A DNA stretch of 64,000 nucleotides, from the sequence record OQ626344. One strand, written 5' to 3'. Made by a program: the position numbers and the translations under genes. Source of the stretch: Escherichia phage S127 BCL3. Of this stretch, positions 11,712 to 11,758 are shown piece by piece. Within the stretch, counting starts at the first letter, position 1. Each line of letters opens with the position of its first letter. Below the pieces are notes generated by a model. The model was not told the origin of the DNA, searched no databases, and saw nothing but the letters and a program-made list of their open reading frames with translations.

Positions 11712-11758
11712 TTGACATGACCACATGGATGTGGTATTGTTACCCAGTAAAATGTTAA
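11712..11758 (+). promoter_or_regulatory. sigma70-like promoter with embedded inverted repeat (element copy 1)
   Basis: TTGACA-N17-TATTGT; spacer holds CCACATGGATGTGG, followed by CAGTAAA and AGGAG RBS. Confidence 0.5.

Follow-up and report, generated by a model that had tools for sequence, protein, structure and literature searches.

A 64,000-nucleotide stretch of Escherichia phage S127 BCL3 (sequence record OQ626344; the whole stretch is called the window below) carries two sites at which the spacer of a predicted promoter is occupied by a 16-nt inverted repeat with the core CCACA-N4-TGTGG. Copy 1 begins at position 11712, in front of a small membrane protein gene, and copy 2 at position 27434, in front of a cysteine-rich micro-ORF (open reading frame, ORF) and nrdG. 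Judged by their sequences, the two are paralogous copies of one compact promoter cassette. The best overall explanation, to which we assign a probability of about 0.4, is that both are sigma-70 promoter cassettes of common descent whose inverted repeat has been kept for base pairing between its arms. This figure also carries the promoter reading, which is well supported; the gradings given below to the individual explanations of the repeat refer to the palindrome alone. By its sequence, the source of the window is a Vequintavirus (rV5-like): positions 10000-14000 share 99.2% identity with Escherichia phage B9-1 and 93-99% with about 120 other Vequintavirus myoviruses.

Promoter parts of the two copies

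11712-11717, + strand: -35 hexamer TTGACA of copy 1, invariant in 12 relatives and part of the rV5 promoter P90
11720-11735, + strand: 16-nt inverted repeat of copy 1, ACCACAtggaTGTGGT, with arms of 6 bp, or of 7 bp as ACCACAT/ATGTGGT; TGTGG at 11730-11734 is the extended -10 element
11735-11740, + strand: -10 hexamer TATTGT of copy 1 after a spacer of 17 bp, with a TGT that can pair with ACA in the -35 hexamer
11745-11774, + strand: 5' untranslated region (5'UTR) of copy 1 up to the ATG, with CAGTAAA (11745-11751), the Shine-Dalgarno sequence AAGGAG (11757-11762) and the ATG at 11772
27434-27439, + strand: -35 hexamer TTGACA of copy 2, 3 nt past the nrdD stop codon, invariant in 12 relatives
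27443-27458, + strand: 16-nt inverted repeat of copy 2, GCCACAaggaTGTGGC, with arms of 6 bp; TGTGG at 27453-27457 is the extended -10 element
27458-27465, + strand: -10 region of copy 2, read either as CATATT (27458-27463, then ATTGTT) after an 18-bp spacer or as TATTGT after 20 bp
27473-27496, + strand: 5'UTR of copy 2 up to the ATG, with CAGTAAA (27473-27479), the Shine-Dalgarno sequence AGGAGG (27482-27487) and the ATG at 27494

The original prediction had described both elements as promoters made of the same ordered motifs (TTGACA, the palindrome, ATTGTT, CAGTAAA and AGGAG), and all of these motifs lie in both copies where it had placed them. In a consensus scan, TTGACA-17-TATTGT of copy 1 and TTGACA-18-CATATT of copy 2 each matched 10 of 12 positions, with TG ahead of the -10 box. 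TGTGG directly adjoins the -10 hexamer in both copies and represents a TRTGn extended -10 element with TG at -15/-14; the right arm of what had been taken for an operator is therefore an RNA polymerase recognition element. Both sites are well supported, by prediction, as extended -10 promoters of the host sigma-70 type, in which the TGTGn element would compensate for the weak -10 hexamers. Since the window holds dozens of TTGACA-N16-18-TAnnnT promoters, the TTGACA -35 box is not specific to this pair.

Existing annotation concurs with the promoter assignment. The orthologue of copy 1 is the predicted promoter P90 of phage rV5, TTGACATAACCACACGGACGTGGTATTTT (Kropinski et al. 2013, PMC3606486, Table S4). 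In the same study, 11 of 33 predicted promoters possess extended -10 regions, and the rV5 'late' motif TggTAaAAtA (TGTGGTAaAAT) is the same extended -10 element (PMC3606486). The nrdG-proximal promoter, copy 2, is missing from the rV5 list (PMC3606486); it is annotated as a predicted promoter in phage Gotham.

Likeness of the copies and frequency of the palindrome

To compare the copies with promoters in general, 30 promoter-like regions of the window were aligned pairwise (local alignment) after removal of the -35 hexamer. Copy 1 against copy 2 scored 46, the second highest of the 435 pairs (mean 15.3, sd 4.8). Together with the palindrome count given next, this score makes the similarity real and places it well beyond promoter consensus, so that the claim of an element shared by two transcription units holds. 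The exact pattern CCACA-N4-TGTGG occurs three times in the window, where shuffled sequences predict 0.04 occurrences and none of 100 shuffles reached three. The arms extend to 6 bp in all three copies (A...T, G...C and G...C; 7 bp in copy 1), giving the form RCCACA-N4-TGTGGY. The third occurrence lies within a gene:

14331-14346, + strand: third exact palindrome, GCCACAggtaTGTGGC, inside the ORF 14235-14558 (107 aa, no Pfam match), coding for A-T-G-M-W

No promoter boxes surround positions 14331-14346, and the remaining 72 kb of the B9-1 genome, the closest complete one, contain no further exact palindrome. The proposed class of promoters thus comes down to two paralogous members, the third copy being intragenic. 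For the third palindrome, the homologous gene in the distant IMG/VR contigs L006-L008 (position ~707; endolysin 82% identical to that of the window) retains GCCACAgggaTGTGGC, including conservation of its two free third codon positions, and the four preceding codons all differ synonymously. This comparison provides weak evidence of functional constraint on 14331-14346.

Relaxed searches gave modest excesses only. Palindromes with up to two mismatches number 37 in the window against 26 expected (3 of 100 shuffles reached 37), and stems of at least 6 bp occur in 8 of the 30 window promoters as opposed to 12% of random windows (p = 0.02).

Two other groups of window promoters contain inverted repeats of their own. 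A second paralogous family, on the minus strand, starts at 54390, 52264 and 55070 (first T of TTGACA) with the layout TTGACA-N16/17-TAnAnT, and a GC-rich 5'UTR hairpin (GGCGGGAAnnTTCCCGCC or a close variant) lies about 10 nt beyond the promoter; 54390 and 52264 form the most similar promoter pair of the window (score 54). Separate inverted repeats were seen at the promoters 63444(-), 2903(-), 63781(-), 52574(-) and 12732(+). In four of these five the repeat brackets the -10 box and places it in a possible hairpin loop, as in GATAGGGCC-TAATATAAT-GGCCCTATC and CGTGATA-aaatccacc-TATCACG; at 12732(+) the repeat overlaps the -10 box.

Conservation among relatives

For each copy, 12 Vequintavirus orthologues picked to span the identity range were aligned. 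The -35 box is invariant. For the 16-mer, the mean pairwise difference per site is 0.031 in copy 1 and 0.029 in copy 2, against 0.15-0.17 in the 5'UTRs (copy 1 0.17) and 0.07-0.19 at third codon positions of neighbouring genes. The adjacent 5'UTR is hence about five times as variable as the 16-mer, and neighbouring third codon positions are two to six times as variable. Such conservation is not usual for promoter spacers, and the alignments support purifying selection on the palindrome within the genus. The motif search across genome and relatives that the original prediction had proposed yielded three exact copies and a 16-mer conserved in 12 relatives; at the copy 1 site of L006-L008 the palindrome is absent.

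The majority form of copy 1 in the genus is ACCACAcggaCGTGGT, with arms of 5 bp. Two C-to-T changes in the lineage of the window lengthen these arms from 5 to 7 bp. In the same lineage a change of TCA to CAG creates the CAGTAAA common with copy 2, where most relatives have CTCATAAA. The CAGTAAA described earlier as conserved is therefore present in both window copies, but its copy 1 version is confined to the window lineage. Sequence exchange between copies 1 and 2 is possible on this evidence. In copy 2, the relative YP-6 differs by a single G-U-compatible arm change. Gene-based retrieval from IMG/VR added little: NrdG returned only two loci, and endolysin mostly unrelated prophage-like contigs of ~40 kb.

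The same design in other phages and metagenomes

The pattern TTGACA-N3,4-CCACAnGGAyGTGG gave 15 hits in IMG/VR, 12 of which (16 sites) are intergenic and promoter-like. A -10-like hexamer follows directly at all promoter-like sites with the GGA centre except copy 2 of Vequintavirus; it is mostly TAnAAT, with GACAAT for the L094 group and TATTGT for copy 1 of Vequintavirus. These sites belong to at least four phage groups without detectable common genes in the stretches compared. When the left arm was swapped for ACACC, which has the same composition and is not complementary, the number of hits fell from 15 to 0. With a free centre, TTGACA-N3-CCACA-N4-TGTGG-TAnnnT was found at 23 viral loci with varied centres, the alternative complementary pair TCACA/TGTGA at 31 loci and the ACACC control at 6.

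Covariation between the arms was assessed in a scan that allowed Y and R at the outer pair and counted each flank-similarity cluster once. The combinations C..G, T..A, T..G and C..A occurred 22, 19, 6 and 4 times, respectively (odds ratio 17, p = 2e-5). GC content was rejected as the source of the covariation, as the association persists within GC strata. At another stem position, an independent metagenome sample, partly made up of the tRNA-linked family described below, gave counts of 34, 29, 25 and 11 (odds ratio 3.6, p = 0.004). A double change from CCACA/TGTGG to TCACA/TGTGA separates the orthologous promoters of L127 and L153, and the single-step variants YP-6 and L175 have G-U-compatible pairs. 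At the otherwise unconstrained position ahead of the left arm, 54% of paired promoters have an A, compared with 22% of other promoters from the same loci (p = 8e-11). This A pairs with the first T of the -10 box; in copy 2, the sixth pair is G...C through the non-consensus C that starts its -10 hexamer.

A family of metagenome sequences located downstream of tRNA genes was observed in L198, L222, L225, L234, L275, L278 and L283, within ~7 nt of the tRNA gene in L222 and L234. Its sequence, TTGACAATACCACAGAAATGTGGTATTGTTTTGTTA, forms a hairpin with perfectly matched arms of 11 bp and a GAAA loop, includes a T-run, and doubles as TTGACA-N17-TATTGT with an extended -10 element; from these features it may be a combined terminator and promoter. 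An Rfam search of 20 metagenome loci returned tRNAs and one group I intron, and no riboswitch.

Predicted folding

As RNA, the hairpins of copy 1, copy 2 and the third palindrome have predicted energies of -7.0, -9.3 and -10.7 kcal/mol, respectively. The value of copy 2 was matched by none of 200 shuffles, and its hairpin with the T-rich tail appears terminator-like on both strands in a simple scan, which copy 1 fails. The repeat is part of a larger interrupted palindrome, in which ACA of the -35 box faces TGT of TATTGT in copy 1, and ACAA faces TTGT in copy 2. Fold prediction places such lower stems in a slightly different register; in copy 1, part of the -35 box pairs with the TGTTA behind the -10 box. 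The complementarity of -35 and -10 as an outer stem accounts for the common 'ATTGTT' and the unusual -10 boxes.

Genomic setting of the cassettes

11238-11708, + strand: endolysin gene (B9-1 annotation), immediately upstream of copy 1
11772-11978, + strand: gene of a 68-aa membrane protein (B9-1 annotation), ATG at 11772, downstream of copy 1
25307-27430, + strand: nrdD (B9-1 annotation), immediately upstream of copy 2
27494-27610, + strand: 38-aa Cys-rich micro-ORF, its stop codon overlapping the nrdG start (ATGA) at 27607

Each cassette comes right behind a stop codon, that of the endolysin gene for copy 1 and that of nrdD for copy 2, both genes being on the cassettes' own strand, and no terminator lies between these stop codons and the cassettes. 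From this arrangement, copy 1 is predicted to drive the small membrane protein gene and copy 2 the micro-ORF together with nrdG. The micro-ORF, which has no Pfam match, is kept across the genus, and its four Cys pairs form a zinc ribbon pattern.

The cassettes lie at mosaic junctions, and relatives of the window differ at both of them in the presence of homing endonuclease genes (L072 1425-2460; L091; L080-L082; L306-L307). WalterGehring and nom possess such a gene, of ~1 kb, that starts right after the TGTGGCA of copy 2, so that the cassette now precedes it. In DrSchubert, A141 and isim, copy 1 is separated from the endolysin gene by an HNH endonuclease gene, which ends a few bases before the -35 box. 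With both 101-nt queries, BLAST matches in many genomes stop at the edges of the cassette. Duplicated cassettes flanking the endonuclease insertions were not found. The cassettes may exchange sequence with each other.

Host factors and candidate regulators

Across 596 Gb of bacterial genomes, the GGA-centre promoter pattern turned up 11 times, at scattered places, where ~17 occurrences would be expected by chance (own estimate), and a 36-nt query with the copy 2 promoter (27431-27466) had no match in 5,426 E. coli genomes. A host regulon was rejected on this chance-level count and the absent E. coli match, which together make it unlikely.

CRP, FNR, NrdR, DnaA boxes, sigma-54 and LexA, compared through their consensus sequences, were rejected on orientation, spacing or sequence. 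The NrdR box is an AT-rich 16-bp palindrome, acaCwAtATaTwGtgt (CAC-N8-GTG), usually present as two boxes ~31-32 bp apart. It resembles the element described here in that one copy lies in a ribonucleotide reductase cluster and the arms contain CAC/GTG; it differs from the single CAC-N6-GTG with a G-rich GGA centre, one copy of which is not near an nrd gene. The CRP site is TGTGA-N6-TCACA and the FNR site TTGAT-N4-ATCAA. CRP half-sites have TGTG in common with the palindrome, but face the opposite way at a distance of 6 bp, whereas CCACA...TGTGG has a gap of 4 bp; the FNR sequence is unrelated.

The sole nearby candidate for a DNA-binding protein is a small winged-helix protein at window positions 4950-5300, with matches to HTH_36 and DUF6945 just under the Pfam cut-offs. 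The neighbouring B9_00037 (5348-6007, - strand), annotated in B9-1 as 'transcriptional regulator', has Pfam matches to calcineurin-like metallophosphoesterase families and to none that binds DNA. A regulator common with the other phages carrying the same spacer was rejected: tblastn of 360 window ORFs of at least 50 aa against ~65 kb from ten non-Vequintavirus GGA-centre loci revealed no relative.

Explanations of the inverted repeat

For the repeat itself, the reading placed first, though tentatively and short of an even chance, is that it is kept because its arms base-pair, most likely as a hairpin in read-through RNA. Unrelated phages, whose arms differ in sequence, show compensatory changes at two stem positions, and this argues for base pairing rather than for the preference of one protein. 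A hairpin in read-through RNA is favoured since the cassettes lie in transcribed DNA right behind same-strand genes. The extended -10 element forms the 3' arm of the spacer repeat and its complement the 5' arm, with a weaker outer stem between parts of the -35 and -10 boxes. Polymerase reading through from the upstream gene would give an RNA with a 6-bp hairpin of -7 to -9 kcal/mol, located ~12 nt past the stop codon and followed by an A/U-rich stretch. This hairpin would label or shield the upstream message at its 3' end, or act as a partial attenuator of read-through, and the same DNA would restart transcription via its promoter. The cassette would then be an overlapping version of the promoter and stem-loop cassettes of T4-like phages.

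A number of observations weigh against the hairpin. The palindrome is not conserved everywhere its promoter is: copy 2 of SYGMH1 has two non-compensating arm changes, and the promoter before the membrane protein gene of L006-L008 is TTGACAGCCTGCTTTGTTTCTGGTATACT, without a palindrome, so that the palindrome appears dispensable. The GGA centre is non-palindromic and conserved in both copies, and a plain hairpin does not require it. The hairpins are short, 5-bp TCACA/TGTGA stems as found in AT-rich phages would hardly be stable as RNA, and the larger folds are unremarkable (z-scores of -0.95 and -1.9). That G-U mismatches outnumber C-A mismatches could also stem from promoters favouring G at -16. 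In a set of 324 unselected promoters from the fetched loci, 13 had the palindrome in register against 9.0 +/- 2.6, a non-significant excess (p = 0.1), so the design belongs to a subset and is no rule. Neither T after the -10 box nor GNRA loops were more frequent in paired promoters than in mismatched ones, and termination is hence not a general property. A literature search for Vequintavirus transcript or start-site data found none, and promoter starts and RNA 3' ends are accordingly predicted.

A broader version of the pairing idea is rather unlikely at present. It would make the rV5-type sites members of a widespread, hitherto undescribed phage promoter design, in which selection keeps the upstream spacer half complementary to TRTGn and the first -10 base, and 26-29 bp would serve as a strong host-type promoter on DNA and as hairpin on read-through RNA or transiently single-stranded DNA. 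The tRNA-following metagenomic sequences, with their perfect 11-bp arms and T-run, would represent the extreme end of such a design.

The original prediction had proposed co-regulation by a factor binding the palindrome. In this form, a dimeric phage or host protein would bind the 14-16 bp palindrome over the spacer and extended -10 element, compete with sigma region 3 and, in the course of infection, switch both promoters off or on together, which is possible but on the doubtful side. Two half-sites of 5-6 bp with centres ~9 bp apart fit the geometry of a helix-turn-helix dimer; 434-type operators have the form ACAA-N6-TTGT. The arms of copy 1 are invariant in the genus while its centre alone varies, and the 16-mer is about fivefold more conserved than its surroundings. 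A binding site would also suit the GGA centre, which recurs in the intragenic copy of the distant relatives, and the third palindrome without promoter boxes is as compatible with a binding site as with a hairpin. The very short AT-rich stems of other phages are more credible as protein sites than as RNA structures, and the winged-helix protein at 4950-5300 is a candidate binder. Against an operator stands that its right half-site equals the extended -10 consensus and that the design recurs in unrelated phages, where compensatory double changes between orthologous promoters and covariation at two stem positions would be unexpected. Further, the GGA-centre form is at chance level in bacteria, nothing like the copy 2 promoter was found in the 5,426 E. 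coli genomes, the palindrome is gone from the orthologous promoter of L006-L008, and the 'regulon' would consist of two promoters only.

The absence of any separate function is improbable. In that case the sites would be duplicated extended -10 promoters, with a left arm complementary by descent or through template-switch correction of quasi-palindromes during replication, and the spacer would be conserved only for its fit to RNA polymerase or on account of a young genus. TRTGn suffices to explain TGTGG, as in the rV5 'late' motif, and the copies being paralogous, their common palindrome represents one event. The new Ts of copy 1 in the window lineage are each complementary to an unchanged facing base, which is the pattern of template switching; the decay of the palindrome in SYGMH1 and L006-L008 and the lack of a significant excess in unselected promoters fit as well. 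This explanation is countered by the complementary left arm, which is 4-5 times commoner than a non-complementary arm of the same composition (15 against 0 with the GGA centre), by covariation that survives flank clustering and GC stratification, by the bias of the free sixth position towards pairing, and by the conservation of the spacer, which greatly exceeds that of the 5'UTRs and is two to six times that of synonymous sites in the same alignments. A use of the cassette mainly as, or as a mark of, an insertion or exchange site, with the palindrome as nuclease or recombination target, is very improbable. The endonuclease genes abutting TGTGGCA or the copy 1 -35 box, the breaks of BLAST matches at the cassette edges and the copy 2-like bases in copy 1 of the window lineage (TCA to CAG), which suggest exchange, would agree with it. 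Yet the junctions leave the palindrome intact on their conserved side, the insertions are not flanked by a duplicated cassette, and recurrence in unrelated phage promoters without a nearby endonuclease gene is left unexplained. Moreover, free-standing homing endonuclease genes usually insert intergenically beside conserved genes, whatever lies there.

Relation to known systems and significance

P90 and the other extended -10 promoters of rV5 share TTGACA, a spacer of 17-18 bp, TG at -15/-14 and a weak -10 box with the cassettes. The rV5 paper makes no mention of the inverted repeat, the relation of the two sites or the complementarity of spacer and extended -10 element (PMC3606486), and a search of the literature for a description of a spacer palindrome found nothing relevant. 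The annotation of copy 1 as P90 was known before. New with respect to the sources searched are the recognition of the two sites as a pair, the inverted repeat, and the way in which this repeat relates to the extended -10 element.

The closest parallel are the PeSL cassettes of T4-like phages, in which a near-consensus sigma-70 promoter with a stem-loop is repeated in dozens of copies (Arbiol et al. 2010, PMC2839356; Comeau et al. 2014, PMC4122927). They were proposed to be combined terminators and promoters as well as recombination substrates, and the stem-loop was shown to terminate efficiently (PMC2839356, PMC4122927). Similar to PeSLs, the cassettes described here are repeated, combine a sigma-70 promoter with a 6-bp stem, stand between same-strand genes of a lytic myovirus, and border insertions or replacements between close relatives in several genomes. 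In contrast, the PeSL stem-loop is separate and beside the promoter, whereas the present one lies within the spacer with the extended -10 element as one arm; with 5-7 bp its stem is short, the promoter copies number only two, and termination is at the level of prediction.

MerR-family and lambda- or 434-type operators, which are placed in the promoter spacer or overlap the -10 box, likewise carry a short dyad between -35 and -10, with half-sites about one helical turn apart. MerR-type promoters have spacers of 19-20 bp and longer dyads. The present dyad differs from all of these in coinciding with a polymerase element and in its compensatory changes across unrelated phages.

With these findings, two promoters of the phage are located, one of which the rV5 reference promoter list lacks, and their odd -10 boxes are explained: they are complementary to the -35 box and would be compensated by the TGTGn extended -10 element. 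Judging from the scans, a subset of phage promoters seems to have a spacer that is under selection for pairing with the extended -10 element and is not a neutral ruler. If true, one short sequence would combine initiation with a structure-dependent function, be it RNA 3'-end formation, attenuation or regulation, and modules of this kind could keep the transcription units of densely packed genomes apart or process them. This would bear on phage promoter prediction, on the design of compact synthetic phage genomes and on how lytic phages separate transcription units without canonical terminators.

Further observations

A 116-aa protein encoded at 7353-7703 (+ strand) contains a cREC_REC (cyclic-phosphate processing receiver) domain (Pfam PF20274, E = 4.5e-14). 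The next gene, 7712-8473 (+ strand), encodes a 253-aa protein with the N-terminus GAGLSAESGIPTFR, which is Sir2-like by eye; the pair might serve to counter host defence. Lastly, about 20 GenBank records named 'Campylobacter phage' (MG0656xx, UNVERIFIED) are Vequintavirus genomes with >90% identity to this E. coli phage, and their host labels are probably wrong.

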